This document shows positions 848 through 37,338 of a DNA stretch of 64,000 nucleotides, one piece after another (within the stretch, counting starts at the first letter, position 1; each line of letters opens with the position of its first letter). The stretch comes from Vicinamibacterales bacterium (GTDB taxonomy: Bacteria > Acidobacteriota > Vicinamibacteria > Vicinamibacterales > JAMQPK01). The translations under genes and the position numbers were made by a program. The stretch is taken from positions 1,618,642 through 1,682,641 of the forward strand of contig CAWGSZ010000009.1 in the NCBI GenBank assembly GCA_963825295.1, read 5' to 3'. The notes below the pieces were generated by a model. It saw only the letters and a program-made list of their open reading frames with translations, did no database searches and was not told the origin of the DNA.

Positions 848-857
848 AGAGAAGACC

Positions 858-3728: not shown

Positions 3729-4282
<554 letters not shown>

Positions 4283-18780: not shown

Positions 18781-19977
18781 TCACTTTTTCCCAGCGAGGA
18801 TCTTCCACGCGCCGTGCACGTTGCGGTGCACGTAAAGCGCCGGCAAGAGCCACGGGCCCAATGGCTTATCGCGGAGTCCATAGGCGCCGAGCATGTAGCC
18901 GGGGCTGGGCAGTAGCACCTCGCGCAGCAACCGGGCGCGGTCCCCCAGCCGTGGCAACGCGCGCAGGCTGGCAAGGGTCTCGTGGTGCCACCTCCGTTCA
19001 GACGCCAGATACCGCGCGGAGGGTTCCGGCGCCGCCTCGCGGTTCAGCCCGGCGATGAGATCGGCGTCAACCGGCGTGTTGAACAGCGCCCTCGCCTGCT
19101 CCAATGCGCGGCGGCATATCGCCGTGACCTTCCTGGCTCGAGCCAGCTCCTGGAACTCGTTCCGCTCGGCCGCCGACAACCCGGACGCGAGCAGGTGGAT
19201 GTCGAGGATCCACAGCAGCCGCTCGTCGTTGCGGTGATGCATCGCAGGATGCACGCACGACAGAAGGAGCGCATCCACGCGGCACGGGGCGAAGGCCGAC
19301 TCGCCGAGCGCCGGTACGGCGATCGCGCGTCGCAGCAGCGTGTCATACGGCAGCAGGTCGGCAAAGACGGGCTGCGTGCTGATGTTCCAGTGTACGTCGA
19401 AGGCGTGGACCACGCCGAATCGATCGCGCTGCTGAACCTCGAACTGCGAAAGCAGCTCGTGGCATTGCACGGTTTCCACATACGAAAGCGATCGCATCAC
19501 CTGGCGAGCCGCCTCGACGTCTGCGGCGGAGACCATGAGGTCGGTATCGGCGCGAGAGCGCGATGCCGGCGAGTCGTACATGGTGTAGGCGAGCGGCGTC
19601 CCCTTGAGAAGAATCGGACGGATCCCGGCATCCGCCAGCGCGGCGACCACGCGACGGATTTCTGCTTTGCGCAGAAGCTCTTCTGCGGCACGCGTGCGGG
19701 CCACGTCCGAGAGCTCTTCCCACACCTGCCGGGGCCAGCCGGCAGTCGAGAAACGGATCCCGGATCCGTTTTCATCCGGTGCCCCAGAAAACGGATCCGC
19801 AATCCGTCTCTCGGCAGAATCAAGGCTCGACAGTCGCTCGAAACAGAGACCCTCGACCTCGTGCTCGCGGCACAGGTCGAGGAACTGTTGCGCGTCGAGC
19901 CCCAGATCGCTCCACCGCGTGACGTCGCCGCGCAGGAACGCTGCCAACAGCTGCAGCGGCTCACGTGAGGACGGCAT
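18781..19977 (-). CDS. Nucleotidyltransferase-family protein (PF14907-like), lasso-cluster tailoring candidate
   Basis: 398 aa. The central region LLKGTPLAYTMYDSPASRSRADTDLMV...FDVHWNIS resembles the uncharacterised nucleotidyltransferase family found in kinase-type lasso clusters. Its start overlaps the B2 stop by 17 nt. Confidence 0.6.
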   Translation of the reverse strand: MPSSREPLQLLAAFLRGDVTRWSDLGLDAQQFLDLCREHEVEGLCFERLSSLDSAERRIADPFSGAPDENGSGIRFSTAGWPRQVWEELSDVARTRAAEELLRKAEIRRVVAALADAGIRPILLKGTPLAYTMYDSPASRSRADTDLMVSAADVEAARQVMRSLSYVETVQCHELLSQFEVQQRDRFGVVHAFDVHWNISTQPVFADLLPYDTLLRRAIAVPALGESAFAPCRVDALLLSCVHPAMHHRNDERLLWILDIHLLASGLSAAERNEFQELARARKVTAICRRALEQARALFNTPVDADLIAGLNREAAPEPSARYLASERRWHHETLASLRALPRLGDRARLLREVLLPSPGYMLGAYGLRDKPLGPWLLPALYVHRNVHGAWKILAGKK

Positions 19978-20371
19978 AGTCCTCGAGTTCCGGCAGGTGG
20001 CCGATCACGACTTCTCCCCTGCATTCAACCCACGCGTGCGCCTCCAGCACGGTGGATGCGCCACTGCGCGCGCCGATACGCAACGTCGCGTCGTATCCGT
20101 GGCGCCGCAACATCGTGTACGCCGTCAGCGCTTCCGCAAGACACGTCGTTCCCGGCAGTCGTCGCGTGACGGCGGCGGCAGCCCATGTGATTCTCGACAG
20201 GATGTCCCGCTGGTTGGGGCTCGATTGTGCGCGGCGATCGAGTCGGCGAGTGAGCTCGGGGAACGACAACACGTGGAGACCGATCCGCACCCACACGATG
20301 AGCACAAATGCCTCTGCCAGACGCGCCCTGTCGGCAGGGGTCAAGCGCGCAAAGATGCGAAGCGTGTTCAT
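19961..20371 (-). CDS. Lasso peptide leader peptidase B2 (transglutaminase-core cysteine protease)
   Basis: MNTLRIFARLTPADRARL...TTCLAEALTAYTMLRRHGYDATLRIGAR...EAHAWVECRGEVV carries the Cys and His of the transglutaminase-like core. The ATG at 20371 overlaps the upstream stop (ATGA). The longer track ORF reaching 20530 overlaps the GT-C gene. Confidence 0.75.
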   Translation of the reverse strand: MNTLRIFARLTPADRARLAEAFVLIVWVRIGLHVLSFPELTRRLDRRAQSSPNQRDILSRITWAAAAVTRRLPGTTCLAEALTAYTMLRRHGYDATLRIGARSGASTVLEAHAWVECRGEVVIGHLPELEDYAVLT

Positions 20372-21945
20372 TCGGTTCTCGTGCCTGTTGGATCGTAGCC
20401 GACCGGACATTCTGGCGGCAGCCGATAGAGATCGGTCGATGGAAATCCGACATCCCACGACGCGCGCAAGGGACCGAGGCGATTCAAATGAAGTGGCGGC
20501 GCCGCATAGCTGGCGACGCGCACGGCGCACGCGTACTCGCCAGGCACATCATCGCCCGTCTGCCAGATGAAGAATCTCGACGAGCCGGGCGAAGCGCCGC
20601 GGCGATGGCCCGGTGGCTGAAACGCGTCGAGATGCGTGGCCCACCGCGCCCAGTCGGCATGGCTCGACGCGACAAACGATCGATAGGAGGAGCCGGCCCC
20701 CTCAACTGAAAAAAAGTACAACGCGTCAGGTCCAACGACCGAGGACCCCTCGGGGACCTGCCGGCGGATGAATTCGGTGAGGGGAACCGGGTCGCGCGCC
20801 TCCCAGGTGGCCGCAATGCGAAGGTCACGAACCCCGGCCACCGCAAGGTTGACCGCCGCCAACGCAGCGACGATGGCAGCCAGCCCAGCCGTGGGAAGAC
20901 CGAACGCGCGCCGCGGCAACGCGAGAACCACGGCCAGGACCGGAACGGCGAAATACATGCCCAGCGAGAACGTGATGTTCATCCCGCACACAACGATCAC
21001 GCCGGTGGCAATTGTGGCCGCGAGCGCGAAGAGCGCCGCCACGGCCCGAGTGTCGTCACCGCGAGAACTCCGGACGAGATGCCAGAACCCGAGCACCCCA
21101 CCGGCAAGCGCCGCGGCGGGCGTCACCACCGACGACCAGTTGAATGCGAACACACGCGTCGCGGCCTCGAGCATCGCAACATCCGTGTCCTCGCGCGTCA
21201 GGATGAAGAACATGCTGCGGGCCCACGGAACAGGACCACCGTGCTCGAGGAGAGTCCACAGCACGAACCCGGTTGTGAAGACGCCCCCAGCCATCACGAC
21301 CTGCCTGAACGCGCCAGGCCGACGCGTCATGAATGCGGTCGCGCACGCGCACACCAAGAAAGACGCGACAAATGGATAGCTGCGCGGTGTCGTCAGCGCC
21401 GCGAGAAGCAGGAACCCTCCAGCGATCGATCCCGCCATCGCCCCTCGCGTCGGAACCAGCAACCCACGGGCGAATGCCGCAAGCGCCATCAACTGAAACC
21501 CGACGGCAAGCGTTTCCATGTCGCCGCCGGTCGCCGCCGCCCCGATTTCGGGCGTGAGCCATATCAGCACGATCGCCAGCAACCATCGCGTACGGTCGCC
21601 GCTCAAGCACGACGCCAGCCATGCGGCGCCTGCTCCGACCAGCAGCACACCCAGCAAACCGGGAAGCTTCGAGCTCTCGATCGAGAACCCGAACACCGCG
21701 AACGACCACGACATGAGCGTGAAGAAAACAGGACCGTAGAAAGGCAGGTGATCGACCGCGGCCGGCGAGAACCAGGTCGTCGATGGCACGCCGCTGCCAT
21801 CGATCTGCAGCGAACGCGCGATGGACGCATAGAGCTGTGCGTCCGGCCAGGGCGTCGAAGCCCGCCCACGTGTGACGTAGAAGCTCGCGAGAATCAGGCA
21901 CGCCGTCACGGCCAGCGCCGCCGGACCGATGCGCGCCGCGGTCAT
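20368..21945 (-). CDS. GT-C-fold (ArnT/PMT-like) polytopic membrane protein embedded in the lasso operon
   Basis: 525 aa. About 10-12 TM helices with an early loop motif PWPDAQLYASIARSL, plus a roughly 150-aa C-terminal soluble domain. It is paralogous in architecture to 25827..27066, 46623..48374 and 60223..61564. ATGA overlaps on both sides. Confidence 0.55.
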   Translation of the reverse strand: MTAARIGPAALAVTACLILASFYVTRGRASTPWPDAQLYASIARSLQIDGSGVPSTTWFSPAAVDHLPFYGPVFFTLMSWSFAVFGFSIESSKLPGLLGVLLVGAGAAWLASCLSGDRTRWLLAIVLIWLTPEIGAAATGGDMETLAVGFQLMALAAFARGLLVPTRGAMAGSIAGGFLLLAALTTPRSYPFVASFLVCACATAFMTRRPGAFRQVVMAGGVFTTGFVLWTLLEHGGPVPWARSMFFILTREDTDVAMLEAATRVFAFNWSSVVTPAAALAGGVLGFWHLVRSSRGDDTRAVAALFALAATIATGVIVVCGMNITFSLGMYFAVPVLAVVLALPRRAFGLPTAGLAAIVAALAAVNLAVAGVRDLRIAATWEARDPVPLTEFIRRQVPEGSSVVGPDALYFFSVEGAGSSYRSFVASSHADWARWATHLDAFQPPGHRRGASPGSSRFFIWQTGDDVPGEYACAVRVASYAAPPLHLNRLGPLRASWDVGFPSTDLYRLPPECPVGYDPTGTRTE

Positions 21946-22238
21946 GACGGCTCGCGAATCTCCACCAGCCCGCGTTCCGCGAGATGGCTCAGCAGCGTGC
22001 AGACGTCTTCTCGACAGCGTACCGCGTCGACGTCATAGAGCTCGACGATCGCGCTCACGATCTCGTCAATGGTGACCGTGCGCGCCAGCAGCTTCCAGAT
22101 CTCGGCGCCGGCGCCATCGAGGCCGTAATAGGTGCCGTCGTTCAGGTTCAACATCACGACTTCGGCGCCCAGCTCGCTCGCCAGCACGTCGTGAGCCATC
22201 GCAACGGTCGAGGATGAAGGTATGTCGGAGCGAGCCAT
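21942..22238 (-). CDS. PqqD-like RiPP recognition element (lasso B1)
   Basis: MARSDIPSSSTVAMAHDVLASELGAEVVMLNLNDGTYYGLDGAGAEIWKLL...VCTLLSHLAERGLVEI follows the PqqD fold pattern. The start is chosen at 22238 so that it does not overlap the divergent cyclase. Confidence 0.7.
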   Translation of the reverse strand: MARSDIPSSSTVAMAHDVLASELGAEVVMLNLNDGTYYGLDGAGAEIWKLLARTVTIDEIVSAIVELYDVDAVRCREDVCTLLSHLAERGLVEIREPS

Positions 22239-22275
22239 CGATGATCGCAAAGTATTATAAAGTCCGAATCGAATC

Positions 22276-24204
22276 ATGAACGGCATCACAGGCGTGTGGA
22301 ATCTCGACGCGCGCCCAATCGAGCGGGGCGTGCTCGCCACGATGAGCGCCCGTCTCGCCCACCGCGGGCGTGACGGCGAACGCCTGTATCTGTCCGGCCC
22401 CGCGGGTGTCGCCTGTCAGCACTCCTGGGTCACGCCCGAAGAACAGGGAGAACACCTCCCGCTCGTCGGCGCCTCCGGCGCGGTGCTGGTGATGGACGGC
22501 CGCATCGACAATCGACACGATCTCGTCACCCGATTGGGGCTCGACGCGACGGCCAGCGACGCCCGCTGCGTGCTGGCGGCGTACGAAGCCTGGGGCGAGG
22601 GGTTCGCCGCGCGCCTCAACGGCGATTTCGCGCTCGCGATTCTCGACGCCGGCGCCGGACGCCTCATCCTGGCGCGGGATGCGCTGGGCGTTCGAGCACT
22701 CTATTACTTTCACGGTGCGGGGCTGTTCGCGTTCGGATCGGAGATCAAAGCGCTTCTGGCTCATCCCGATATCCCCGCCGAGCCCAACGACGAGGGCGTC
22801 GCCGACTTCATGCTCGTCGGTGCCCGGCCGCTCGATCAGCAGGACCTCACCTGCTTTCGCGGCATCTCCGCCGTCATCCCCGCGCACGTCGTCGTCGCAA
22901 CGCGTCGCGGAACATCCAGTCATCGCTATTGGAACTTCGACCCCCAGGCTCGATTGCGTCTGAAGACGTCCGAAGAATATGTCGAGGCGTTCCATGAGCG
23001 GTTCGCCACGGCCGTGAAACGACGCACGCGTTCGGCGTTCCCGGTTGCGTTCTCGGTCAGCGGCGGCCTCGATTCGTCGTCCATCATCTGCCAGTCGGAG
23101 ACGCTGCGGCGCAACGGCGAGCTGCCGGCCCCGTCAATCGCCGGCCTTTCCTACGTATCCGATCGCGTGAATACCGACGAGCAGCAGTTTCTTCGTGAGA
23201 TCGAAGCTAAATTCGATCTGCAATTCGACCGCTTTACTATCGAAACGCGGACCGGCCTCGTCGAGGGCGCGCGGGAACAGGTATCGGCTATCGAAGCGCC
23301 ATTTGTGGATTACATGTGGGGCGTCACGCGCGAGGTGCACGTACGGGCCGCGGCCACGGGGGCACGCTCGCTGCTGTCGGGTCACTGGGGCGATCAGATG
23401 CTCTTCTCGAGCGCGTATCTGATCGACTTGTTCCGCCGAGGGGCCTGGCGGTCGATCTGGCGTCACACGCGCGAGTACGGCCGGTATTTCGGCGACGAGG
23501 AGACCGCGAGACGCCGGCGCCTGCTGCTCGTCGACGCCGCGCGGTACCACGTGCCGCGCTCGCTTGCAACGCCGCTCAAGTGGCTTCGAATGCGGCTGTT
23601 CGCGCCACCCCGGCCGAAGGCGTGGTTTGCACCTTCATTCCTGGCCACGGCCCTGCAGCATCGCTACAAGCTGGCGACACTGGACGGTCCGTTCCACTCG
23701 GCCCACGCCCGCGCCGTCTACATCGAGGCGCGCTCGAAGTACCAGGTACAGTGCATGGAGTGGAACAGCAAGGTCGGCGCACGGTACGGGCTCGAGGCGG
23801 CGTTTCCATTCCTCGATCGCGATCTCATCGCGTTTCTGATGGCGATTCCCGGAGAGATGCACGCGCCTGATGGCGTGCCGCGCGCCCTCTTACGTGAAGC
23901 GATGCGCGGCATCCTGCCCGATTCGATCCGCGCGCGCACCTGGAAATCGGATTTCAGCAGCTTCGTGACCCAGGGGCTCAGCGACGATGCTGACGAAATC
24001 CTGCGAACGATGACGGGCGACTGTCTCGGCGTGCGCTTCGGCTTCCTCGACGGCAACAAGCTCGCGCCGGAGCTCGCTCGCCTGGCCGAGTCACTGACCG
24101 CCGATGACTGCACGGATAGCTGGGATATGGCCGACACGTATGGCCTCGAAATGTGGCTTCGAGTATTCTTGGGCGGACACGTCCTGAACGAGGAACACGC
24201 ATGA
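22276..24204 (+). CDS. Lasso peptide cyclase (asparagine synthetase B homologue, C protein)
   Basis: 642 aa. AsnB-like Ntn and synthetase domains (SVSGGLDSSSI PP-loop). Residue 2 is Asn (MNGITG), not the catalytic Cys of a true AsnB. The stop overlaps the precursor start. Confidence 0.8.
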   Translation: MNGITGVWNLDARPIERGVLATMSARLAHRGRDGERLYLSGPAGVACQHSWVTPEEQGEHLPLVGASGAVLVMDGRIDNRHDLVTRLGLDATASDARCVLAAYEAWGEGFAARLNGDFALAILDAGAGRLILARDALGVRALYYFHGAGLFAFGSEIKALLAHPDIPAEPNDEGVADFMLVGARPLDQQDLTCFRGISAVIPAHVVVATRRGTSSHRYWNFDPQARLRLKTSEEYVEAFHERFATAVKRRTRSAFPVAFSVSGGLDSSSIICQSETLRRNGELPAPSIAGLSYVSDRVNTDEQQFLREIEAKFDLQFDRFTIETRTGLVEGAREQVSAIEAPFVDYMWGVTREVHVRAAATGARSLLSGHWGDQMLFSSAYLIDLFRRGAWRSIWRHTREYGRYFGDEETARRRRLLLVDAARYHVPRSLATPLKWLRMRLFAPPRPKAWFAPSFLATALQHRYKLATLDGPFHSAHARAVYIEARSKYQVQCMEWNSKVGARYGLEAAFPFLDRDLIAFLMAIPGEMHAPDGVPRALLREAMRGILPDSIRARTWKSDFSSFVTQGLSDDADEILRTMTGDCLGVRFGFLDGNKLAPELARLAESLTADDCTDSWDMADTYGLEMWLRVFLGGHVLNEEHA

Positions 24205-24362
24205 AACGCAAGCCAGAGCAACCGGCGACGCCCAGACGGGTCTATCGGACCCCGTCGCTGAAGGTTCACGGCGATTTCCGCAAGGTGACCGCCAGCAAGG
24301 GTGGCACGAACAACGACGGCACCGGAAAACCGCGGACGAAGAACAACAACCCGAACCAGTAG
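24201..24362 (+). CDS. Lasso peptide precursor (53 aa)
   Basis: MKRKPEQPATPRRVYRTPSLKVHGDFRKVTASKGGTNNDGTGKPRTKNNNPNQ. It carries a YxxPxL leader motif, Thr at leader position -2 and Asp at predicted core position 8. ATGA overlap with the cyclase; the kinase starts 4 nt after its stop. Confidence 0.7.
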   Translation: MKRKPEQPATPRRVYRTPSLKVHGDFRKVTASKGGTNNDGTGKPRTKNNNPNQ

Positions 24363-24366
24363 TCGA

Positions 24367-25326
24367 ATGCCCGTGCGATACCGTCTGTACGGGCTCACCA
24401 TCGAGTGCGACGTTCCGCTTTCCTGCCCCCGGGATTCCCAAGACAGCACCTCTGACGTTCGACTGACACGCGCCGCCGCCAAGCGGTTCGACCAGGTGCG
24501 TACGATGGCCAGCATTCCATCACGTGCGGCGCAATGGTTCGAATGCGCGCGGCTCGAAGATGGCTCCACATACCTGCGATGGACGCGGCTCTTCGAGTTC
24601 CTCGTGGCGCCGGACGGACGAACGATCGAGTGCCGCCCGCTCGAACACGCCACGCGTCACGCCTTGACGACGTATCTGATGGGACAGGTGCTGTCGTTTT
24701 CTCTGCTCTCGTTCGGGTACGAACCGCTGCACGCAACGGCCGTTGTGATCGACGGCTCGGCGGTGGCGTTTCTCGGAGACTGCGGCGACGGAAAGTCGAC
24801 GCTCGGAGCGGCACTCGTCGCGCGCGGATTCCCGCTCCTCACCGACGATGTGCTGACGCTGAAGTCCGACGGCAACCGGTTCCTGGCTTATGCCGGACCG
24901 GCGCGGCTCAAGCTGTTTCCGTCGGTCGCGCGCTCGCTGCTGGGACGATCGGGAACGCACCGGCTGAATCCAGGGACGCGCAAGCTCGTGCTGCCGCTCT
25001 CGAGCCGTCGCGCCTGGTCTGATGCCGTCCCGCTGGAGGCGCTGTACGTCCTGTGCGGGCCGGCACGCAGCCGACGCGCCTCGCGCGTCACGCTCACCCC
25101 GCTGACGGGTCAGCGTGCGTTTCTCGAAGTGATTCGCTCGACGTTCAACCTGATCCAGGTCGACAAGGCACGGCTCGAGAATCAGTTCGGGATGGCAGTG
25201 GAACTCGTGAAGGCGGTGCCAGTGACGCGAATTACCTACCCAAGGAGACTGTCGCGTCTGGAAGAGGTGTGCGAGGCGATCCTGGGACGTCAAAGAGGCT
25301 CAACGTCAGATTGTCGTTCGGCATGA
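24367..25326 (+). CDS. HPr-kinase-related (HprK-like) lasso peptide kinase
   Basis: 319 aa from ATG 24367 (MPVRYRLYGLTIECDVPL). P-loop FLGDCGDGKSTLGAALVARGFPLLTDDV resembles HprK/P C-terminal-domain relatives found in lasso clusters. Confidence 0.65.
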   Translation: MPVRYRLYGLTIECDVPLSCPRDSQDSTSDVRLTRAAAKRFDQVRTMASIPSRAAQWFECARLEDGSTYLRWTRLFEFLVAPDGRTIECRPLEHATRHALTTYLMGQVLSFSLLSFGYEPLHATAVVIDGSAVAFLGDCGDGKSTLGAALVARGFPLLTDDVLTLKSDGNRFLAYAGPARLKLFPSVARSLLGRSGTHRLNPGTRKLVLPLSSRRAWSDAVPLEALYVLCGPARSRRASRVTLTPLTGQRAFLEVIRSTFNLIQVDKARLENQFGMAVELVKAVPVTRITYPRRLSRLEEVCEAILGRQRGSTSDCRSA

Positions 25327-25837
25327 TCTGGCCCAGCAACGTGGCACCGGTCGCGCGGCCGCGCGTCGGCTCGTGCCGGACAAGCCAGTTGCCAAGAATC
25401 AACGCCGCAATCGCGAACGTGACATCGGAGCTGTACTGCTTGCAGTTCGCGCCCCAGTAGATTGCCGACGGAGACAGCGAGAAAAGCGCGAGGGCCAGAA
25501 GCGCCGCCCCGCGTGAAAGGTAGGCACGCGCCGCCATGTAGAAGAGCGGCAGCGACACGAGACCGCACACGAACGCCGGAAACCGCAGCACGCGCTCGGA
25601 ATCGCCGAACATGAGCACGAACGCTTTGGTGACGAATACAAATCCAACCGGTGCCGCCTGGTGGAACTCGTAGGGGCCGAGCAGATCCCAGCCCGACTTG
25701 CGCAGAATGTTCAGCGCCAGCGCCGCCTCGGGCCACCAGAACGATCAGTCGAACAGATACATCTGAAGGCGCAGCCCCGCGCCCACCGCGACGAGCGCGG
25801 TGACCGCCATGATGACGCGGCGGTTGTCAGACACCAT
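25232..25837 (-). pseudogene. GT-C (ArnT/PMT-like) gene remnant: in-frame TGA and 3' truncation
   Basis: MVSDNRRVIMAVTALVAVGAGLRLQMYLFD-TGA(25745..25747)-SFWWPEAALALNILRKSGWDLLGP...LRFPAFVCGLVSLPLFYMAARAYL... stays in one frame. Family-like sequence fades near 25370, where it runs into the 3' end of the convergent kinase gene. Confidence 0.55.
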
Positions 25838-27066
25838 CGCGCCTCTCCGGCACACGCGCGAGCGCGACAGCCGCATAGAAGAAGAACACGAACTCCATCG
25901 GTGCGCGGTATCGCGTGGCGGGCACATACACGGCGTAGACCACGACGAAGACGCAGGCGATCGCCCACAGCGCAAAGTCGTGCGCGAGCACGTGGCGGCG
26001 CATGTAAATGCCAGCCACAGCCGCGAGCATCACGAACGACGACGCCAGGGTGTGGCTGATGACTTCAAGTCGCGGACGTGTCACTGGCGCCTCGACAATG
26101 ACCTTGTCGGGCGGTGCGAGCGTCACGCGCGTCTCCGGACCAGAGACGTACAGCGGGATCAGCCGGGGCGAGAGGAAGATACCCCGCGTTCGCGAGCTTT
26201 TCCTTGATCGTCCCAACCGGCGAGGCTTTCATGTGCTCGATCGCGGCGCTCGTCAGGTACGCATCGATACGCGGAGTGTAGTCCGCGCTGCCCGGCACGA
26301 TGTCGGGCCGGGCCGTCGTTGCCAGCTCATAGGCCACCGGCTCGAGCAGGTCGAGATCGTGGTCGGGCAGCAGCGCCGCCGCGTATGGCGAGTTTCCGAT
26401 GAAGAGGTTGATCCCGTTCCGGGTCGGCCACCAGGATCCGTTCGCCCGGTGATTCCGCATCCACCATGGCAGCACGAGGATCATCGCCACACCGGCGACC
26501 ACCGCGGCGTCGCGTGCCTGGCCGCGCCGCACCAGGACAGCCCCGACGAGCACAATGAGCGGCAACACCATGGCCCGGCTGAGCACGCTGAGCCCGAGCC
26601 ATGCGCCGGCGATCGCGGCAGAGGCGACGCCCGCGATCGACGCGGCCGCGCCGGCAAACCCGACGAGCAGCAGGGTTGTGAGTGACGAATCGCCGACCGT
26701 GGCCGCATGCCGGACCAGCAGCGGATACCCCGCGAACAGCAGTCCGGCGAACACGCCGGCGCGCGCCGATCCCGTCCGGCCGAGGACGAGCCGGTACAGC
26801 AGCACCGCGCCGAGTGAGGCGACCGCAATCTGCATCAGCTGGACGGCCAGCACGGAGTCGCGCGCGATGAGCCGGGCGCCGGCAAGGAACAACGGATAGA
26901 GCGGTTCGAAGTCGGTCACGGGAAGGCCGTCGATCGTGAACGTTCCGGTTCGAACCAGACTGCCCGACAACGCCCAGTACTGGCTTTCGATTGGAGGATG
27001 AATCAGCAACAGGTAGGCGAGACGCGGAAGAGCTGCGGCACAGAACAGGATGGCCGCCGGTTTCAT
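25827..27066 (-). pseudogene. GT-C (ArnT/PMT-like) membrane glycosyltransferase, frame broken once
   Basis: The N-terminal roughly 295 aa (MKPAAILFCAAALPRLAYLLL..., ATGA-coupled to thrB) and the C-terminal TM part (IFLSPRLIPLYV...YRAPMEFVFFFYAAVALA, ORF 25827..26216) are in different frames. Removing one C from the CCCC run at 26182..26185 joins them (…KLANAG-IFLSPRL…). Confidence 0.6.
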
Positions 27067-27998
27067 ATCACGCGCGCACCCTGACTGCTCACCTTTCCTG
27101 CGAACAGATCGCTTTCGAGGCCGGCCGCCGATCGGAATGCGGTCTGCATGGCCGCGCCGATCCGTTCGGCGGCGATCACGCTCTCCGCAAACGCAAACAC
27201 CGAGGGTCCGGACCCGGCGATCGAACACCCCAGCCCTCCGGCCTCGAGCGCGGCCCTCTTGACCGCATCAAATCCCGGAATCAGCCGCGAGCGGAGCGGC
27301 TCGACCAGACGGTCTTCGACGCTGCGTCCCACCAGCCCCAGATCACCACGGCCAAGACCCGCGACAAGCGCCGCCACGTTGCCCAGATTCGGCACGATGT
27401 CGTCGAGCGCGTACGTACGCCCCTTCACCAGACGCCGCGCCTCGGCCGTGGATACTTCGCAATGGGGGTGCACCACGCTGATGTGCAGCGTGTCGGGGAA
27501 CGGCAGCCGAATGACCTCGAATGGTTGATAGCTGCGGACGAGCACGATGCCCCCCATGACGCTCGGCGCCACGTTGTCGGCATGGGGCGTCCCCGATGCG
27601 GCGCGCTCCCCTTCCATCGCACTCGCGACAACGTCGGTCTCGGCGAGCGGCCTGCCCAGCAACTCGTTGACGGCGACGGCGCCGGCCGCGCTGCTCGCGC
27701 CAGAGCTGCCAAGCCCGCTCGCCAGCGGCATCTGCTTGTGCAACCAGAGCCGCACGCCTCGATTCGCGCCGGTGCGTCGCAGGACATCGGCCGCGGCACG
27801 TCCCACCACGTTCTTGCCGGCATCGCGGCTCAAGAGTCCACGATCGCCCGTGACCTCCACGATTTCGATGCCGGGGCGATCGGTCAGCTCGGCCTCGAGC
27901 TCGTCGCCGGGCCGGCTGAGCGCCAGTCCGAGCACATCGAATCCTGGCCCGAGATTCGCTACGGTTGCGGGTGCGAAGACGCGAATTCGTCGGTTCAT
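27063..27998 (-). CDS. thrB: Homoserine kinase
   Basis: 311 aa. The N-terminus VFAPATVANLGPGFDVLGLAL and the GHMP motif PLASGLGSSGASSAAG are present. Confidence 0.9.
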   Translation of the reverse strand: MNRRIRVFAPATVANLGPGFDVLGLALSRPGDELEAELTDRPGIEIVEVTGDRGLLSRDAGKNVVGRAAADVLRRTGANRGVRLWLHKQMPLASGLGSSGASSAAGAVAVNELLGRPLAETDVVASAMEGERAASGTPHADNVAPSVMGGIVLVRSYQPFEVIRLPFPDTLHISVVHPHCEVSTAEARRLVKGRTYALDDIVPNLGNVAALVAGLGRGDLGLVGRSVEDRLVEPLRSRLIPGFDAVKRAALEAGGLGCSIAGSGPSVFAFAESVIAAERIGAAMQTAFRSAAGLESDLFAGKVSSQGARVI

Positions 27999-28675: not shown

Positions 28676-28729
28676 GTCATATATAGTTCGTTATTGTTCC
28701 TGTCGAAAACTCAACCCTAAGCCGATAAA

Positions 28730-31000
28730 TTGCTAAGCGAAATGGACCCGAGTCAACGGCCCACCGCCCTTACCGCCGCGCGCCAGTCCGCATCATCTGC
28801 CGCCTCGAAACATGGGCTGTTTCCGACGGACTCGGATACGCATCTGCTCGACCGGCTGAACGCGATCTACAAGTACCGGTACGTCGTCGTCACGATCTTC
28901 CTGCTCGTGTTGCTGGCGGTCACCATCCGGACCTACACCACCACGCCGATGTACCGTTCGACGACCAGCGTGCTCATCGAGGAAGACCGCACGTCTTCCG
29001 TCGCCGGCTTCAGCACACAGACACCCAGCGACTACACGCAGGACTCCGAGCCCTACTACCAGACCCAGCTTCGCATCCTGACCGGGCGCGAGCTTGCCAC
29101 CCGCGTCGCGGACAAGCTGAAGCTCGCCAGCGTCCCGGAGTTCAACGGTCAGGGGGCGGCGCGTACGGGACTCGCCTCGGTGCTCGACACGATGAAGCAG
29201 CAGGTGAAGGGCCTCGTGCGTCAAGCCACCGGAGCGGCCCCGTCAAGCACGCCGGCCCCAAAGCCGACCTCGGCCGATCTCGCCAACGGGTTCCTCGGTG
29301 CGGTCCAGGTGGAGCAGATTCGAGGGAGCCGGCTGTTCAACGTCTCTGTTACGTCGTCCGATCCCCAGTTCGCCGCCCGGGCGGCCGACACGCTTGCGTC
29401 GGAGTACGTGCACTTCAATCTGGAGTACCGCACCGACGCCACGCGCAAGAGTTTGGACTTCCTCGCCGGCGAAATCGCCAAGCAGCAGAAGAAGGTCGAA
29501 GACAGCGAGCGCGCGATGGCGGAATACCGCGAGACGAACAACGCGCTGTCGCTCGAGGATCGCCAGAACACCGTCGTCGCGAGCCTGAATCAGGTGAACG
29601 ACCAGTACACGCGCATCAGGACCGAGCGGATTCAGAAGGAAGCGCTCTACAACCAGATCAAGTCGCTGCCGCCGGCGTCGGTGGGCGACGCGCCGGCCGT
29701 GTCCTCGAACCCGGTGGTGCAGAGCCTGCGCACCCGGCTCGCCGAGCTGCTGCGCCAGAAGGTGCAGCTCAACGAACGCTACGGTCCCAAGAACCCGCAG
29801 GTGATCGAGAACGAAAACGCCATCATCGACACGACCAAGCAGCTGCAAGCCGCGCTCAATGCGGCGGTGCAGGCGATCCGCAGCGAATACGAGACGGCGC
29901 GCGCGACCGAAGCGCGCCTGGCCGGCGAGCTCAAACAGTCGCAGAGCGCCTCGATGGATCTGAACCGCAAGAGCGTCGGCTACACGGTGCTCGAACGCGA
30001 GGCTCAGAGCAATCGCGCGGTGTACGAAGCGCTGCTGCAGCGGCAGAACGAGCTGCAGATCGTGAGCAACAGCGGCGGCAACAACGCGCGCCTGATGGAT
30101 CGCGCGGTCGTGCCGGATACGCCGTTCACGCCCGACGTGCGCCGCAACTATCTGCTGGGCACGCTGGCCGGGCTGCTGCTCTCACTCGGACTGGTGCTCG
30201 CGATCGACTACCTCGACGACACCGTGAAAACGCCCGAAGACATCACGCGCCGCCTCAAGCTGCCGTTCCTCGGGCTGGTGCCGGCGGTCAAGGGCAACAA
30301 TCACCCGATCCTGTCGCAGGAAGTGCCCCACGAATTCGGCGAAGCGTTCCGCGCGCTCCGCACGTCGCTGGTGTTCAGCAGCGGCACCGAGGGCACGCGC
30401 GTCATCGGTTTCACGAGCGCCCAGCCGCTCGAGGGGAAAACGACGACCGCCTGCAACATGGCGATCGCGCTCGCCTATGGTGGTTCGCGCGTGCTGCTCA
30501 TCGACGCCGACATGCGGCGCCCGAGCGTCTCGCGCACCCTGGGCATCGAGAACAACATCGGATTGTCGCACCTGCTTACGGGACAGGCGACCGCACGACA
30601 GGCGATTCGCAGCACGAGCGTTCAGAATCTCTGGGTGATGACCGCGGGGCTCACGCCGCCGAATCCGTCCGAACTGCTCGCGTCGGACAGGATGAAAACG
30701 CTCATCTCGAACGTGCAGTCGGGGCCGTTCGACTGGGTCCTCATCGACACGCCGCCAGTGCTGGCGGTGACCGATGCCGTGATTATCGCGCCGTGGGTCT
30801 CGGGCGTGGTGTTCGTGATCGGATCGGAGATGACTCAGCGGCGCCTGGCCGAACGGGCGGTCGAGACGCTGATGACCAGCCGTCCGCACGTGCTCGGCGC
30901 GGTGCTCAATCGCGTTGACATCATTCGCAACAAGTACTATTACTCGCGGTACTACGGCTACAAGTACAAGAACTACTACGTCAAATCCACCGCGGCATAG
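28730..31000 (+). CDS. Polysaccharide co-polymerase / tyrosine autokinase (Wzc/GumC-like)
   Basis: 756 aa. Wzz-like N-terminus with a TM helix, a long coiled-coil periplasmic region and a second TM helix. C-terminal P-loop kinase (TSAQPLEGKTTTACNMA, LLIDADMRRP, VLIDTPP) with a Tyr-rich tail YYYSRYYGYKYKNYY. Confidence 0.9.
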   Translation: MLSEMDPSQRPTALTAARQSASSAASKHGLFPTDSDTHLLDRLNAIYKYRYVVVTIFLLVLLAVTIRTYTTTPMYRSTTSVLIEEDRTSSVAGFSTQTPSDYTQDSEPYYQTQLRILTGRELATRVADKLKLASVPEFNGQGAARTGLASVLDTMKQQVKGLVRQATGAAPSSTPAPKPTSADLANGFLGAVQVEQIRGSRLFNVSVTSSDPQFAARAADTLASEYVHFNLEYRTDATRKSLDFLAGEIAKQQKKVEDSERAMAEYRETNNALSLEDRQNTVVASLNQVNDQYTRIRTERIQKEALYNQIKSLPPASVGDAPAVSSNPVVQSLRTRLAELLRQKVQLNERYGPKNPQVIENENAIIDTTKQLQAALNAAVQAIRSEYETARATEARLAGELKQSQSASMDLNRKSVGYTVLEREAQSNRAVYEALLQRQNELQIVSNSGGNNARLMDRAVVPDTPFTPDVRRNYLLGTLAGLLLSLGLVLAIDYLDDTVKTPEDITRRLKLPFLGLVPAVKGNNHPILSQEVPHEFGEAFRALRTSLVFSSGTEGTRVIGFTSAQPLEGKTTTACNMAIALAYGGSRVLLIDADMRRPSVSRTLGIENNIGLSHLLTGQATARQAIRSTSVQNLWVMTAGLTPPNPSELLASDRMKTLISNVQSGPFDWVLIDTPPVLAVTDAVIIAPWVSGVVFVIGSEMTQRRLAERAVETLMTSRPHVLGAVLNRVDIIRNKYYYSRYYGYKYKNYYVKSTAA

Positions 31001-31034
31001 GACGTCCGCGCCGCCTGGCGCCTGGGCCGCCGCG

Positions 31035-32474
31035 TTGATTCTGGCGTGGGTGACGTTCCCGGCGGGCGGCGTGTATCCGATGGTGTGGATCCCCGCGGCC
31101 TGCGGCGTCGTGCTGCTGGCCCTCGTGGTCAGGCCGCGAATCATCGGCGACATGGCGGCTCGAACCGCCGATATCGCGCTCGTCCTCTCGGTCGCCGCCA
31201 TCCTTCTTCAACTCGTTCCCCTGCCTCAGTCCCTTCTGCGGGCGATCGATCCGAACGCGCTTGGCGTGCGCGCCTCGTTGTGGCTGATGGTTCCGCCCGC
31301 GGATGCCGATGCACGCGTACTCCCCATCAGCATCGTTCCGGCCGATACGGTCGCGGCGCTCGGTATCGTTGCCTGCGCGGTCCTCTTTTTCTGGACGTGC
31401 CGTCAGATCTGCGAAGCCGGCGGCGCCGGCCGGCTGATTCGCGCGATTGCCGTCATCGGCCTCGTCGCCTCGATTGCCGCGATCGTGCAGCGCTCGCAGA
31501 GCCACGACTTGCTGTACGGCATCTGGCGCCCGATCGATCCCGGCGCGCGCCCGTACGGCCCGTTCGTGAATCGCAATCACTTTGCCACGTGGGTGGTGAT
31601 GGCGTGTCCGCTCGTCTTTGGCTACCTGCTCGCGCGTGCGCCCAACCATCCGCCGGCGCATCTGATGGCGCAGCGGCTGGCCGCGGCGTTGAAGCAGCTG
31701 GGCTCGATGCGCATCTGGCTCGTCGCATCGGTGTCGGTGATGGCGCTTGCCGTGCTCATCTCGGCTTCGCGCTCGGGGCTCATCGGGTTGATGTCGGCGA
31801 TGAGCGTCAGCCTGCTGTTGCGGCGTGGCCAAACGGGCCCGGCCATCCGCCGCTGGACGATCCTTCAGGGTACGCTGCTCGTGGTCGTCGCGCTGTCGTT
31901 TGCGAACTTCGACGCGCTCATCCAACGCTTCGACCAGACGCTCGTCAAGTCCGACGCCGGACGCGGACGATCGGCGATCTGGTCCGACGCGGGACGCGTG
32001 ATTCACCATTTCGCGCTGACCGGTTCGGGTGCGGGGACCTTCGGCAGCGCGGTCGCCGTTTACCAGACCGCGGAACCGGGATACTCTATCGGCAACGCCC
32101 ACAATCACTATCTGCAATTGGCGGCGGAAGGAGGCCTGCTGATTGGGGCACCTGCCGTTCTAGGCCTCTGCGCGTTCTTCGCGCTCGGAGCCCGCAGGCT
32201 GAAAGAGGACGCGAGCGGTAATTACCTCGTGCGGGCTGGAGCCGTGGCCGGCATCACGGCCGTGCTCGTGCAGAGCTTCTGGGAGACGGGGCTGAGAATG
32301 CCCGCCAACGCCATGCTGCTGGCCGTACTGGCCGCTGTCGCGACCTGTTCGGCCGAGGCGCGAGCGGGACGACGTGTCGCGGGTGTTCGCGCGAGCGGTT
32401 CCGCCGGAGGTCGCCGGATGGCCACGAACGACAGCGGAAGCGTGGCTGGGAGCCCACGCGACGAACAATGCTGA
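31035..32474 (+). CDS. O-antigen ligase/polymerase-like (Wzy_C domain) membrane protein
   Basis: Polytopic, with the motif GNAHNHYLQLAAEGGLLIG typical of O-antigen ligase-like proteins. The start is uncertain (TTG 31035, GTG 31050 or ATG 31080); the track ORF starts at 30915, inside wzc. Confidence 0.7.
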   Translation: MILAWVTFPAGGVYPMVWIPAACGVVLLALVVRPRIIGDMAARTADIALVLSVAAILLQLVPLPQSLLRAIDPNALGVRASLWLMVPPADADARVLPISIVPADTVAALGIVACAVLFFWTCRQICEAGGAGRLIRAIAVIGLVASIAAIVQRSQSHDLLYGIWRPIDPGARPYGPFVNRNHFATWVVMACPLVFGYLLARAPNHPPAHLMAQRLAAALKQLGSMRIWLVASVSVMALAVLISASRSGLIGLMSAMSVSLLLRRGQTGPAIRRWTILQGTLLVVVALSFANFDALIQRFDQTLVKSDAGRGRSAIWSDAGRVIHHFALTGSGAGTFGSAVAVYQTAEPGYSIGNAHNHYLQLAAEGGLLIGAPAVLGLCAFFALGARRLKEDASGNYLVRAGAVAGITAVLVQSFWETGLRMPANAMLLAVLAAVATCSAEARAGRRVAGVRASGSAGGRRMATNDSGSVAGSPRDEQC

Positions 32475-33214
32475 GAGTGGGCTTCGATCTCGACGGCGTG
32501 GTCGCGGATTTCCGTACGGCGTTTCTCGACGCGGCGGCCAGAGTGCTCGGCCGCGAAGCCATTCAGCGGCCATCGTCGCCGATGCCCGACTACGACGCCG
32601 TGTCGGCGGCCGACGCCAAGCGCGTGTGGAAGGTGATTACCGAGACGCCGAACTGGTGGGTCGGGCTCGCGCCGTACGAACCAGCACAAATCGCGCGGCT
32701 CTATCAGCTCGCGCGCCGGTACCGATGGGAAGTGTCGTTTCTCACTTCGCGCATCCCCACCGCTGGCGACTCCGTTCAGGTTCAAAGCCAGGCCTGGCTC
32801 GAAGCGTACGGCTTCTACATGCCGGCCGTCGTCACCGTTCCGGGCTCGCGGGGCGAGATCGCCAACGCGCTGCGTCTGGATCTCGTCATCGACGATCAGT
32901 TCCTGAACTGCCTCGAAGTGGTCGGCGCGTCCCAGTCAAAAGCGATCCTCATCCTGCAGATGGGCGACGACACGCTGGAACAGCAGGCGACCGACCGCGG
33001 CATCGGCGTCGTGCATCGCCTCGAGGAAGTTCTCGAGGTGTTGATCCAGCTGCAGGATTTCCTTCCCCAGAAGCGCGGCGTGGTCATGCGTCTTGCGGAC
33101 TGGTTCTCGCGCAAGGAGCCTGAGAGCCACATTCTGCCGATGAATCCTCGCGCGGCCAGACCGGTACCGCCTCACTCCGATTCAGCCTCTTCTAACAAAA
33201 CAGGAGGGGATTAG
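32468..33214 (+). CDS. HAD-superfamily hydrolase (5'(3')-deoxyribonucleotidase-like)
   Basis: N-terminal GFDLDGVVADF (DxDG HAD motif I). 248 aa. Overlaps the preceding gene by 7 nt. Confidence 0.5.
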   Translation: MLRVGFDLDGVVADFRTAFLDAAARVLGREAIQRPSSPMPDYDAVSAADAKRVWKVITETPNWWVGLAPYEPAQIARLYQLARRYRWEVSFLTSRIPTAGDSVQVQSQAWLEAYGFYMPAVVTVPGSRGEIANALRLDLVIDDQFLNCLEVVGASQSKAILILQMGDDTLEQQATDRGIGVVHRLEEVLEVLIQLQDFLPQKRGVVMRLADWFSRKEPESHILPMNPRAARPVPPHSDSASSNKTGGD

Positions 33215-33262
33215 GAGAAATTCTTTTCGAACAGAATTCTCCTGACCTCTTGATCTCCTGTT
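33197..33262. repeat. Intergenic hairpin repeat, copy C; possible bidirectional terminator
   Basis: aacaggaggggattaggagaaattcttttcgaacagaattctcctgacctcttgatctcctgtt lies between the convergent 3' ends at 33214 (+) and 33277 (-). It shares the TTCTTTT..GAA..AGAATTCTCCTGA core with copy B. Confidence 0.55.
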
Positions 33263-33276
33263 GGAATGGTCTGGGA

Positions 33277-34467
33277 TTAGAAGGCGAGCCGGCGAAGGAC
33301 TAACTGCCGGACGGGGGGGTGCTTCAAGAGCGCGAGGATCAGCTGGCGGTGTCGGTTGAAGGTCGCCGTGCGGCGCACGATCGGCATGACGCCGTCGGTG
33401 CGCGCCAGCTCGAAGAGGGCTTCGATGTCGGCATCGCTCATGCGGTGCGCGACCAGGCGCAGCTTGATCTGCGCCTGGAATTCCGCCGAGAGCCGCTCGC
33501 GCCACAGACGTTCGTACGGCGCCAGCTTGTCGGCAGTCAGCTCGTCTTTCGGAAGCGCCTTCCCCAGCACATCCGCGGCCAGCGAGGCGCTGAGCAGGCT
33601 GTAGTAGATGCCACCGCCGGTTGTCGGCTTCACGAGACCCGCGGCATCGCCGATCGCCAGCAGTCGATCGCCATACGTCCGCGGGAGCGGCGCCAGCGGA
33701 AGGAGCTTCTGCCTCGGGCGCCGCATGGCCGACTCGTCGATGCCCCAGCGGCCGCTCACGCGGGCGGCCAGCCGGTCGAAATACCGCGGCGCCTCGCTCT
33801 CGCACATGACGCCGATGCGCGCGCACTGCTGCGTATTCCGCACGACCGGCACGACCCAGCCGAAGCCCTTCGGCGCAATCTCGCTGCCGAAATGCAGCTC
33901 GACGTCGCCGAGATGACAGGCGGGCAGCTCGATCTGCGCCGTATTGAGGAACATCCGCGGCATGCCGAGACCGACCTGGCGATGAAGCGCGTAGTTCGCG
34001 CCACAGGCAAGAATCGCGACCCTTGCGTGGATGTCGCCATGCGCGGTCTTCACCGTGACACCCTTGCGATCGATCTGCAGCGCCGACGCTCTCGCGCCTT
34101 CCTGGACGACAAGCCCGGCCTGACGGGCGGTCGCCGAGAGCTCCTGGTCGAATGCGCGTCGATCCACAACCACCGCTTCAACGCGGCCGCTCGAATAGCT
34201 CACTTGAGCGCCGGCCGGAGACCAGAAGCGTGCGGTCGTCAGCTCGTTCAAGAGCGAGCGGCGCGAGAGATTGAATTCCTGGAATGCCTCGGCGGCGAGG
34301 ACGCCCGTGCAATGCACGGGCTCGCCCACAGCGGGATGTTCTTCAAGCAGGACGGTGTCGAAGCCGGCAGCAGCCAGTCGCGCTCCGGCGTAGAGCCCGG
34401 CGGGGCCTCCGCCGATAATCGCCACATCCCGCATCGCGGGCATTCTATCGCTAAAACTTGCGCTCAC
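33277..34467 (-). CDS. FAD-dependent oxidoreductase, geranylgeranyl-reductase family
   Basis: VAIIGGGPAGLYAGARLAAAGFDTVLLEE dinucleotide fold, and a C-terminal ...AIGDAAGLVKPTTGGGIYYS motif typical of this family. Confidence 0.7.
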   Translation of the reverse strand: MSASFSDRMPAMRDVAIIGGGPAGLYAGARLAAAGFDTVLLEEHPAVGEPVHCTGVLAAEAFQEFNLSRRSLLNELTTARFWSPAGAQVSYSSGRVEAVVVDRRAFDQELSATARQAGLVVQEGARASALQIDRKGVTVKTAHGDIHARVAILACGANYALHRQVGLGMPRMFLNTAQIELPACHLGDVELHFGSEIAPKGFGWVVPVVRNTQQCARIGVMCESEAPRYFDRLAARVSGRWGIDESAMRRPRQKLLPLAPLPRTYGDRLLAIGDAAGLVKPTTGGGIYYSLLSASLAADVLGKALPKDELTADKLAPYERLWRERLSAEFQAQIKLRLVAHRMSDADIEALFELARTDGVMPIVRRTATFNRHRQLILALLKHPPVRQLVLRRLAF

Positions 34468-35062
34468 GGGCTTCCCATGTGCCGCGGAAGGTGATCCAGA
34501 ACGACAGGAGAATGAGCCGCACGTCGAGCCAGAACGACTGACGGCGGATGTAGAGCCGGTCGTACCGGAACTTGTGACGTCTGGTGATGTCGCGTGGTGC
34601 GTAAATCTGTGCGATGCCGGTCAAGCCTGGAACGACCGCACAGCGCGCCTGGAATCCCGGGACCTCCTCGAGGCGCTCCATGCTGCCACGACCGTTCACC
34701 TCGATCTCGCCGGGACGCAGCGCCCGCGGCCCGACGAAACTCATGTCGCCCCGGAAGATGTTCCAGAGCTGCGGCAGCTCGTCCATCGCGGTCGCCCGCA
34801 TCAGCCGGCCGACTTTCGTCACGCGAGCGTCGTTCTCGGCGGCCTGAAGCGGCCCCACGCGTGCCTCGGCATCGGGAACCATCGATCGGAATTTCAACGC
34901 GAGGAAGGGGCGTCCGCGTCTTCCGACGCGTTCCTGGGTGAAGAAAATGGGCCCGGCGTCTTCGAGTTTGATCGCCCCGGCAAGGATGAGCGCCACGGGT
35001 GCGGAGAGGATCAACCCGCAGCCCGCGAGCAGGATGTCAAGCAACCGTTTGGCGCCGGACAC
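34451..35062 (-). CDS. Polyprenyl-phosphate sugar-1-phosphate transferase (bacterial sugar transferase, priming enzyme)
   Basis: KRLLDILLAGCGLILSAPVALILAGAIKLEDAGPIFFTQERVGRRGRPFLALKFRSM...DELPQLWNIFRGDMSFVGPRA matches the family. Start at GTG 35062. Confidence 0.8.
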   Translation of the reverse strand: MSGAKRLLDILLAGCGLILSAPVALILAGAIKLEDAGPIFFTQERVGRRGRPFLALKFRSMVPDAEARVGPLQAAENDARVTKVGRLMRATAMDELPQLWNIFRGDMSFVGPRALRPGEIEVNGRGSMERLEEVPGFQARCAVVPGLTGIAQIYAPRDITRRHKFRYDRLYIRRQSFWLDVRLILLSFWITFRGTWEARERKF

Positions 35063-36167: not shown

Positions 36168-37338
36168 GATTGCGCCACCTGGCAGTAGAGGTTCGTCATC
36201 TGGTCGGCGTACGTCTTCCAGTCGAATCGAGCGGCCTGACGGACACACGCGTCGCGGCGAGCCTGCCACGCGCGTTCATCTCGAGCTTTCTCCTCGAGCA
36301 GCCGCGTGACCACCTCGACCCACGAAGGGATGTCGCCGGGAGTACAGAACACCGCCGCATCGCCGCCGATTTCAGAGAGAGCCGGTATCCGGCTCGCCAC
36401 GACCGGCGTGCCGCACGCCATCGCCTCGACCAGCGGCAGCCCGAAGCCCTCGCGATCGGACGGCAGCAGCACGAGCGAGGCGTGACGGTACTGTTCGGCC
36501 AACTGCTCTCGATCGAGCGTCGGCATCTGCACGATGTGGTCGGCAACGCCCAGGCGGGTCGCGAGGTCGGCCTGCTCGGAGGTCAGCGGCCCTCCCACAC
36601 GCACGAGCCGAAGGCCGGGAATGGCGCTCCGCGCTCCGGCAAAGGCTTCGAGGAGCACGTCGATGCGCTTGCGTGGAATCGTGCTGCCAACGTGCAGCAG
36701 GTCTGTCGTTCGAGCGCGTCCGTTCGATGCCGGCGTGCAGCTCGGGTGGACGCCGAGATAGGTGACGCTGGTACGTGCCGGTGCGACGCGTCCGCTGGCC
36801 AGCAGTGCCGTCCTGGTGGCCTCGCTGATGCACGCGACGTGCGCCGCGCGCGAGACGCCGTCGAGAACCGACCGCGCCAGCAACCCTTCCGGGTGAAACG
36901 GGGTCGGGAGGGGTTTCGCCTCAGACACCTGGCGAAACCCCTCCCGAACCCGTTCTTCACCGACGGCAGCGCCGGCGTAATCGCATCGACGTCATTGCAC
37001 GTCACGACCGTGCGCTCGGCCGGCAGCACCCGCATCACGTGCGCGTAGCTGTGGTCGATCACATGAAACACGTCGAAATCGCGCACGCGCGGCGCGAGCC
37101 ATCGCGGGTAATCCCAGAGCCGTCCGGTCAGGCGATCGGCGAGCTGCATGCGCGCGCTCCGTCCAATCAGCGGCAACCGGCTCCACCGCTGGTTCATCCG
37201 TGGACGCAGCTGCACCGCCTCGATCCGCCCTCCCGACACGCGCGGCAGCGTCTGCATCAGCATGTCGCCGATGAGATCCATGCTGGGCCACCGCTCTTCG
37301 AGATAGTCACAGACGATGCCAACGCGAAGGGTTGTCAC
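36164..37338 (-). pseudogene. Glycosyltransferase family 4 interrupted by a 50-nt palindromic insertion
   Basis: The N-terminal part (track ORF 36583..37392) and the C-terminal part (36164..36928, ...LLPSDREGFGLPLVEAMACGTPVVASRIP...) change frame exactly at 36901..36950. In-silico removal restores one ORF. Confidence 0.75.
36893..36960. repeat. Palindromic RPE/MITE-like element, copy disrupting a GT4 gene
   Basis: GGGTCGGGAGGGGTTTCGCC-TCAGACACCT-GGCGAAACCCCTCCCGAACC at 36901..36950, with partly symmetric flanks GTGAAACG / CGTTCTTCAC. Same family as 15489..15537. Confidence 0.75.

Follow-up and report, generated by a model that had tools for sequence, protein, structure and literature searches.

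Glycosyltransferases of fold class C (GT-C) use sugars linked to polyprenyl phosphate and work on the outer side of the cytoplasmic membrane. Ram29, Dbv20, Tcp15 and MppH/I are GT-C mannosyltransferases that decorate non-ribosomal peptide antibiotics after export, with polyprenyl-phosphomannose as the donor (PMC4635501). Ram29 is built from a membrane domain of ∼450 amino acids plus a C-terminal domain of ∼150 amino acids outside the cytoplasm, and its gene is present in the ramoplanin cluster and not in the enduracidin cluster (PMC4635501). GT-C tailoring is known for such non-ribosomal peptides, but not for peptides that are ribosomally synthesised and then modified after translation (RiPPs). 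The only reported glycosylation of a lasso peptide is that of pseudomycoidin, whose cluster encodes the kinase PsmK and the nucleotidyltransferase-like protein PsmN and in which a hexose is added on phospho-Ser (PMC6993621, PMC9266682); this step is cytoplasmic, is attributed to PsmN and involves no GT-C enzyme. The present analysis deals with a stretch of 64,000 nucleotides from a soil bacterium of an uncultured Vicinamibacterales lineage (Acidobacteriota; GenBank assembly GCA_963825295.1, contig CAWGSZ010000009.1, positions 1,618,642 to 1,682,641 of the forward strand), referred to as the window, in which a lasso peptide operon carries a gene for a GT-C-fold membrane protein, called X, between the lasso genes B1 and B2. 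X is a rare, optional add-on with at most a tailoring or envelope function outside the core pathway, and is read here, tentatively and with somewhat less than even confidence, as a non-essential glycosyltransferase that modifies the lasso peptide outside the cytoplasm, once it has been exported. Full-text literature searches turned up no lasso or RiPP cluster described as having a GT-C enzyme, in line with the remark in a first-pass annotation of this DNA, made from the sequence alone, that no lasso pathway with such an enzyme was known.

The Ram29 group, to which these domain sizes apply as a whole, resembles X, by its published description, in having a GT-C membrane part with a C-terminal domain of ∼150 amino acids, in being encoded in peptide clusters and in varying among sister clusters; it differs in belonging to actinomycete non-ribosomal pathways with exporters, whereas X comes from a Gram-negative acidobacterium and from a ribosomal lasso operon in which no exporter gene was found. 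With pseudomycoidin-type clusters the window shares split B1 and B2 genes, an HPr-kinase-like K and an NTP_transf_5 gene, the last belonging to the gene type that carries the annotation PsmN in the case of pseudomycoidin (PMC9266682). The cluster represents the kinase/nucleotidyltransferase lasso subtype, as in paeninodin and pseudomycoidin (PMC9266682); a YxxPxL leader, a Thr at position −2, a ring-forming Asp, B1, B2 and C were all found. Its genes are as follows.

20368..21945, minus strand: X, GT-C-fold membrane protein of 525 amino acids (open reading frame with ATG start; fold matches and family alignment)
21942..22238, minus strand: B1, PqqD-like leader-recognition protein of 98 amino acids (Pfam PqqD, 2e-19; NCBIfam lasso_PqqD_Bac, 5e-21)
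19961..20371, minus strand: B2, transglutaminase-like leader peptidase of 136 amino acids (NCBIfam lasso_biosyn_B2, 1.5e-28; Pfam Transglut_core3)
18781..19977, minus strand: NTP_transf_5 nucleotidyltransferase-like gene, 398 amino acids, closing the minus-strand operon (Pfam PF14907, 7.7e-35)
22276..24204, plus strand: C, lasso cyclase of 642 amino acids, divergent from B1 (NCBIfam lass_lactam_cya, 2e-106; Pfam Asn_synthase)
24201..24362, plus strand: A, precursor of 53 amino acids (NCBIfam lasso_leader_L3, 6e-4; precursor family alignment)
24367..25326, plus strand: K, HPr-kinase-related lasso peptide kinase of 319 amino acids (NCBIfam HprK_rel_A, 1.8e-11; Pfam Hpr_kinase_C, 1.8e-5; both under the curated cut-offs)

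X is joined to both neighbours by stop/start overlaps of four nucleotides on the minus strand: the TGA of B1 overlaps the ATG of X in gccgtcATGAccgcg (21945..21942), and the TGA of X overlaps the ATG of B2 in accgaATGAacacg (20371..20368). Both ATGA overlaps had been claimed in the first-pass annotation and are real, and its naming of the neighbours as a PqqD-like B1 and a B2 protease agrees with the Pfam and NCBIfam matches. The ATG start that gives B1 a length of 98 amino acids is backed by homologues (98-amino-acid gene calls in the related loci L001 and L003). The divergent start codons of B1 and C are 37 bp apart (22238..22276), as in L001, so that the promoters must overlap coding regions, or B1 may start at an upstream GTG at 22340. 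The start of A overlaps the stop of C (ATGA), and K adjoins A in nearly all related clusters. No ATP-binding cassette (ABC) exporter was found among the annotated genes in or around the cluster, as had been noticed before, and no dedicated immunity gene among the annotated cluster genes.

X gave no match in Pfam or NCBIfam, and a profile search of PDB sequences returned nothing meaningful. Its relatives fell into 42 clusters in a large protein collection, all from metagenomes or metagenome-assembled genomes of Vicinamibacterales or other Acidobacteriota, and a profile search of 1.84 billion representatives gave 132 with E values up to 1e-30. An AlphaFold (AF2) model built on the family alignment (predicted local distance difference test score, pLDDT, 92.5; predicted template modelling score, pTM, 0.93) shows 12–13 membrane helices, followed by an alpha/beta C-terminal domain of ∼145 amino acids. 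When this model was compared with the PDB by using Foldseek, the top 27 matches were all GT-C enzymes (ArnT, ALG9/12, STT3, DPY19, AftA/B/D, PglB and PimE; probability 0.99–1.00), with ArnT (5f15; E 1.2e-5, template modelling (TM) score 0.57) as the best; transporter folds were matched at a probability of <0.2 only, on which ground X was rejected as an exporter. The first-pass annotation had predicted from the letters a GT-C fold, many transmembrane helices with a soluble C-terminal domain of roughly 150 amino acids, and an acidic/aromatic motif in an early loop (PWPDAQLYASIARSL, residues 32–46), all of which are borne out; its alternative, that X substitutes for the missing exporter, is not.

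ArnT (GT83; PDB 5f15 and 5ezm) has, like X, many membrane helices and a small C-terminal alpha/beta domain, and the two share the first-loop motif P-D-x-x-(R/L)-Y-A-x-I-(S/A)-R. An hhalign comparison of the family profile with E. coli ArnT, weak overall (E 0.21), aligned PWPDAQLYASIARS of X with WQPDETRYAEISRE of ArnT and placed Asp35 on the Asp of the ArnT PDE motif (PDExRYAEI), which we take to correspond to D55 of the crystallised C. metallidurans ArnT. Identity to ArnT is 13–14 % only, however, the YFEKP stretch of ArnT, with its phosphate- and metal-binding residues (E84/K85), reads VDHLPFYGP in X, and X is not accompanied by an arn operon; a PMT_2 match was obtained for just one of the 41 aligned family members (8e-6). 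Membership in ArnT/PMT_2 (GT83) was therefore rejected for X, which itself has no PMT_2 match, gave the hhalign E value of 0.21, has FYGP in place of YFEKP and lacks arnA-D/E/F-like neighbours. PglB/STT3, PMT and DPY19, which demonstrate that peptides can serve as acceptors of GT-C enzymes at the extracytoplasmic face, have the GT-C fold in common with X, but their acceptor-binding modules (WWDYG-type and MIR domains) are absent from X and the TM scores lie below those of ArnT and ALG9. On the predicted model, X has the GT-C fold and, in the first loop, the Asp to be expected of it, and does not belong to the ArnT/PMT_2 family.

In the alignment of the 41 family members, D65, H66, F69-Y70-G71-P72, R188 and D255 are invariant and D35, E252 and D253 nearly so, D35 being kept in at least 90 % of the members. 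D35 follows directly on the first transmembrane helix, and D65-H66 lie in the same (first) loop. A conserved Cys pair in the C-terminal domain (C473, C513) may point to a periplasmic location of this domain. Modelled by itself (pLDDT 84), the C-terminal domain gave no significant structural match (best E 0.24). One family member of 658 amino acids (P0023) carries an N-terminal FtsX-like permease domain (Pfam, 8.8e-12), either a real fusion or an artefact of gene calling.

Genomic context was obtained for ∼27 members of the X family. The order B1-X-B2 with stop/start overlaps was found to recur in loci in which X is 94 % (L010), 88 % (L008), 69 % (L009), 68 % (L001/L002), 50 % (L105) and 48 % (L003) identical to that of the window; the double overlap was established from gene calls in L001, L003 and L105 and from tblastn coordinates in L008, L009 and L010. 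Retention of the double overlap in relatives indicates that it is conserved and not due to chance. In L003 the remainder of the lasso cluster is rearranged, and the coupled X is kept. Locus L102 carries two X paralogues in a single lasso operon (198..1781 and 3629..5227), one before B1 as the first gene and one after NTP_transf_5 as the last; they are 47 % and 49 % identical to X and 52 % to each other, and both overlap their neighbours by four nucleotides. The X clade thus occupies three positions in lasso operons, always with overlapping stop and start codons. Most family members stand alone in unrelated contexts (31–47 % identity to X, plus two of ∼50 %); one of these homologues, in L005, shows translational coupling to a GT-C gene of the PMT_2 family. 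In a neighbour-joining tree the lasso-linked copies form one clade nested among the stand-alone members, with one small non-lasso subclade inside it; the lasso operon of the kinase/nucleotidyltransferase type has recruited one clade of the family. A pattern scan of the three reference genomes that carry X found the lasso-embedded copy as the only family member. Ten residues are specific to the lasso-linked clade (F59, E144, R251, G315, G321, L328, L409, Q462, R489 and W497); they could reflect specialisation, and shared ancestry explains them equally well.

Eighty related lasso loci were retrieved through the cyclase (42–92 % identity). Both B1 and B2 could be seen in 55 of them, and in every one of these the two lie ≤275 nucleotides apart (median 32) with no gene between. 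X is not a regular component of split-B kinase/NTP_transf_5 clusters. Many of the related clusters share the chromosomal position of the window, between sulfite-reductase/glutamate-synthase genes and thrB, which indicates that the lasso cluster is vertically inherited and that X is a variable extra.

Two loci from different metagenomes, L022 and L023, have a cyclase 92 % identical to that of the window and no X. C, A, B1 and B2 are intact in both, K is visible in L022 and NTP_transf_5 in L023. Alignment at the DNA level revealed a clean internal deletion of X, in frame and of 1509 nucleotides net, between alleles that show ∼91 % nucleotide identity across the cluster. What is left is a 22-codon mini-ORF (L022, 423-493; L023, 2100-2163), which reads MT(A/T)(A/V)RI followed by CSECPVG(F/Y)DPTGTRTE and a stop codon, and in which both ATGA overlaps are kept. 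Its retention hints at selection on the translational coupling itself, by which B2 may depend on an upstream reading frame. An ancestral state was considered for L022 and L023 and rejected, since X-carrying clusters at 50–68 % X identity predate the split at 92 % and both ends of X are kept; the occurrence of X-carrying clusters at far greater divergence marks the two loci as losses. The first-pass annotation had itself named absence of the gene from otherwise syntenic lasso clusters as an observation that would speak against its proposal, and precisely this was found, in the 55 loci as well as in L022 and L023. As an observation apart, in L024 and L025 (cyclase 67–69 % identical) A and K are intact, whereas no B2 was detected in L025 and, in L024, neither B1 nor B2 next to NTP_transf_5; these clusters may be degenerate, or the B genes may have moved elsewhere.

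The ratio of nonsynonymous to synonymous substitution rates (dN/dS) of X against four relatives is 0.18–0.20. For the other lasso genes of X-carrying relatives the range is 0.12–0.31 overall, with values of 0.13–0.16 for C, 0.15–0.25 for K, 0.20–0.24 for NTP_transf_5, 0.15–0.31 for B1 and 0.20–0.28 for B2. By these sequence comparisons X is under purifying selection, and a decaying pseudogene was ruled out on the same values. Assembled contigs from three rhizosphere metatranscriptomes match X with 0–2 differences, and contigs of run X6 extend across the boundary of X with B2 (20284-20434) and that of B1 with X (21897-22060), although metatranscriptome libraries can contain DNA. The joint of the X deletion was looked for and not seen in four runs that contain X-region sequence. 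The description of X as an integral operon member in the first-pass annotation thus stands as regards membership, for which the kept coupling, the purifying selection and the RNA contigs over both junctions speak; in the sense of a required component it falls with the 55 clusters and the deletion in L022 and L023.

The precursor of the window has the leader motif YRTPSL...KVTA and the core SKGGTNNDGTGKPRTKNNNPNQ, which is rich in Thr and Asn, as had been pointed out. The mature lasso peptide would have 22 amino acids, with a ring expected between Ser1 and Asp8. Across ∼70 related clusters the precursors have the leader YxxPxLxVHGDxxxLT in common, with xKxGxxxDGxGKPxT(K/R)xxGxxx as the core, and this core family is strikingly conserved over cyclases of 42–100 % identity. 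With the basic residues K2, K12, R14 and K16 the peptide is strongly cationic. Unlike paeninodin and pseudomycoidin-type peptides, the core of the window has no C-terminal Ser; a Ser or Thr is invariant at core position 15, a candidate target of the kinase. A signature specific to X was looked for in the core peptide across the ∼70 clusters and none was found; one core of L003, which carries X, is nearly identical to that of L056, which does not. Two precursor genes are present in L003, L038, L040, L043, L047 and L048.

Two further GT-C genes lie beyond K.

25827..27228, minus strand: PMT_2-family GT-C gene (Pfam PMT_2; alignment with L008, L010 and L022)
25232..25815, minus strand: what is left of a second GT-C gene of the PMT_2 family (Pfam PMT_2 match of the fragment, 5.6e-9)

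The first of these contains an extra base at 26179 (+1 frameshift) that is absent in L008, L010 and L022. Three short-read runs likewise gave contigs without it, one of which is otherwise identical, so that the frameshift is probably an assembly error and the gene not a pseudogene. Compared by blastn with L008 and L010, the remnant is short of 891 bp (297 codons), with the breakpoint at 25330; in L022 and in contigs of runs X3 and X4 other deletions start at the same breakpoint, and the spot is therefore structurally polymorphic in the population. Neither protein showed detectable similarity to the X family profile (hhalign E ∼0.2 each); of these alignments and the one with ArnT, just the ArnT first loop could be interpreted. 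An exopolysaccharide-type locus (28721..36991) lies ∼1 kb beyond thrB and encodes a Wzz/GNVR tyrosine-kinase-like protein, Wzy_C, a geranylgeranyl-reductase-like flavin adenine dinucleotide (FAD) protein and two GT4 glycosyltransferases. In L055, PMT_2 homologues are found between the lasso genes and similar polysaccharide genes (FAD protein, GT4s, plus Bac_transf). The two PMT_2 neighbours were considered as lasso tailoring genes and rejected, because this synteny ties them to the envelope instead; they probably belong to the envelope-polysaccharide locus and not to the lasso pathway. No genes for donor synthesis were found in the annotated surroundings. Within the NTP_transf_5 gene, an in-frame palindrome of 67 nucleotides (19747..19813; arms of 27 nucleotides, 89 % complementary, loop of 13 nucleotides) adds 23 amino acids; the window, L008 and L010 have it, L001, L009 and L023 do not, and it looks like the insertion of a small hairpin element that is tolerated within the gene.

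The reading of X as an optional tailoring glycosyltransferase is favoured because a glycosyltransferase in the operon is variably present among sister clusters, as tailoring genes are. X is, on its model, a polytopic inner-membrane protein, is co-translated with B1 and B2, and would be an active enzyme, Asp35 of the first loop outside the cytoplasm being the candidate catalytic residue; the donor or a metal may be bound by D65/H66, R188 and the E252-D253-x-D255 loop, and the periplasmic side would be where the C-terminal alpha/beta domain lies. Sugar would be transferred from a polyprenyl-phosphate carrier to the exported, probably phosphorylated lasso peptide, and clusters that lack X would make the peptide in unglycosylated form. 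For a phosphorylated lasso peptide, glycosylation has a precedent in pseudomycoidin (PMC9266682). The fuller claim, that a periplasm-facing GT-C enzyme glycosylates a ribosomal lasso peptide after export by means of a polyprenyl-phosphate sugar, the first GT-C tailoring of any RiPP, is put forward as somewhat doubtful.

Several points weigh against tailoring of the peptide. No exporter gene was found among the annotated genes in or near the cluster, yet a GT-C enzyme reaches the peptide only outside the cytoplasm. The stand-alone paralogues keep the same invariant residues, so that the ancestral acceptor was probably not a lasso peptide, and the modelled architecture is closest overall to that of ArnT, an enzyme with a lipid acceptor. 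The C-terminal domain, by its model, yields no informative match and hence no clue to an acceptor, and the span count of 12 or 13 leaves the parity ambiguous. Cores with and without X are interchangeable, which means that there is no co-variation of an acceptor site. Finally X is rare, with none of the 55 related clusters carrying it in the B1-B2 interval.

In a rival reading, considered unlikely on balance, X would have kept the ancestral job of its stand-alone paralogues, act on a lipid-linked or envelope acceptor (lipid A, lipopolysaccharide core or a polysaccharide) and serve envelope remodelling and self-protection, switched on together with the cationic peptide. ArnT-type modification protects against cationic peptides, and ArnT is the best structural match to X, with a similar architecture. 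The invariant residues common to lasso-linked and stand-alone copies, the coupling of the L005 homologue to a PMT_2-family gene and the adjoining envelope-polysaccharide locus with its further GT-C genes fit such a role, as do the basic core residues, conserved with or without X, and the lack of a dedicated exporter or immunity gene among the annotated cluster genes. X is no ArnT orthologue, however, by the PMT_2, hhalign and FYGP results given above, and no donor-synthesis genes lie nearby. Producers also manage without X, as the 55 clusters and the deletion in two near-identical relatives demonstrate. An immunity gene of the GT-C type is not known from any RiPP cluster, and full-text literature searches gave no such case.

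That X is a mere passenger, an envelope GT-C gene from a GT-C-rich neighbourhood that is co-transcribed with the lasso genes and functionally unconnected to the peptide, is judged distinctly unlikely. The stand-alone occurrence of most family members in unrelated contexts, the loss of X without damage to the remaining cluster and the missing co-variation of the precursor are what would be expected of a passenger, and the pattern scan of the three reference genomes, with the embedded copy as sole family member, can be read in the same way. A passenger would nevertheless not account readily for coupled placement down to ∼50 % identity and through the rearrangement in L003, for the two further coupled positions in L102, for the single clade of lasso-linked copies or for a dN/dS as low as that of the lasso genes. 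Taken together, the coupling, the L102 positions, the single clade and the low dN/dS point to long-term selection inside the operon; a role in the peptide is not thereby proved. Very improbable is a non-catalytic X that has lost glycosyltransferase activity and serves the B1/B2/C maturation machinery as anchor or scaffold in the membrane, or the peptide as a conduit for export, since, although its coupled position exactly between B1 and B2 favours co-assembly and no exporter gene was found in the cluster, the expected catalytic acidic and basic residues are invariant in lasso-linked and stand-alone members, transporter folds were matched only at the low probability given above, the L102 paralogues lie outside the B1-B2 interval and all 55 related clusters work without X.

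Whichever function applies, an unannotated GT-C family is defined, with a high-confidence model and candidate catalytic residues, and the near-identical clusters with X and with X deleted represent a natural experiment with its own control. If X remodels the envelope, this RiPP operon would encode a new kind of producer self-protection. Should X modify the peptide, as the tailoring reading has it, lasso and RiPP tailoring would extend to glycosylation from lipid-linked sugars outside the cytoplasm, which has so far been documented only for a few non-ribosomal peptide antibiotics; the exporter-less lasso peptides of acidobacteria would then indeed leave the cell, and an extracytoplasmic maturation step would be added to lasso peptide biosynthesis.

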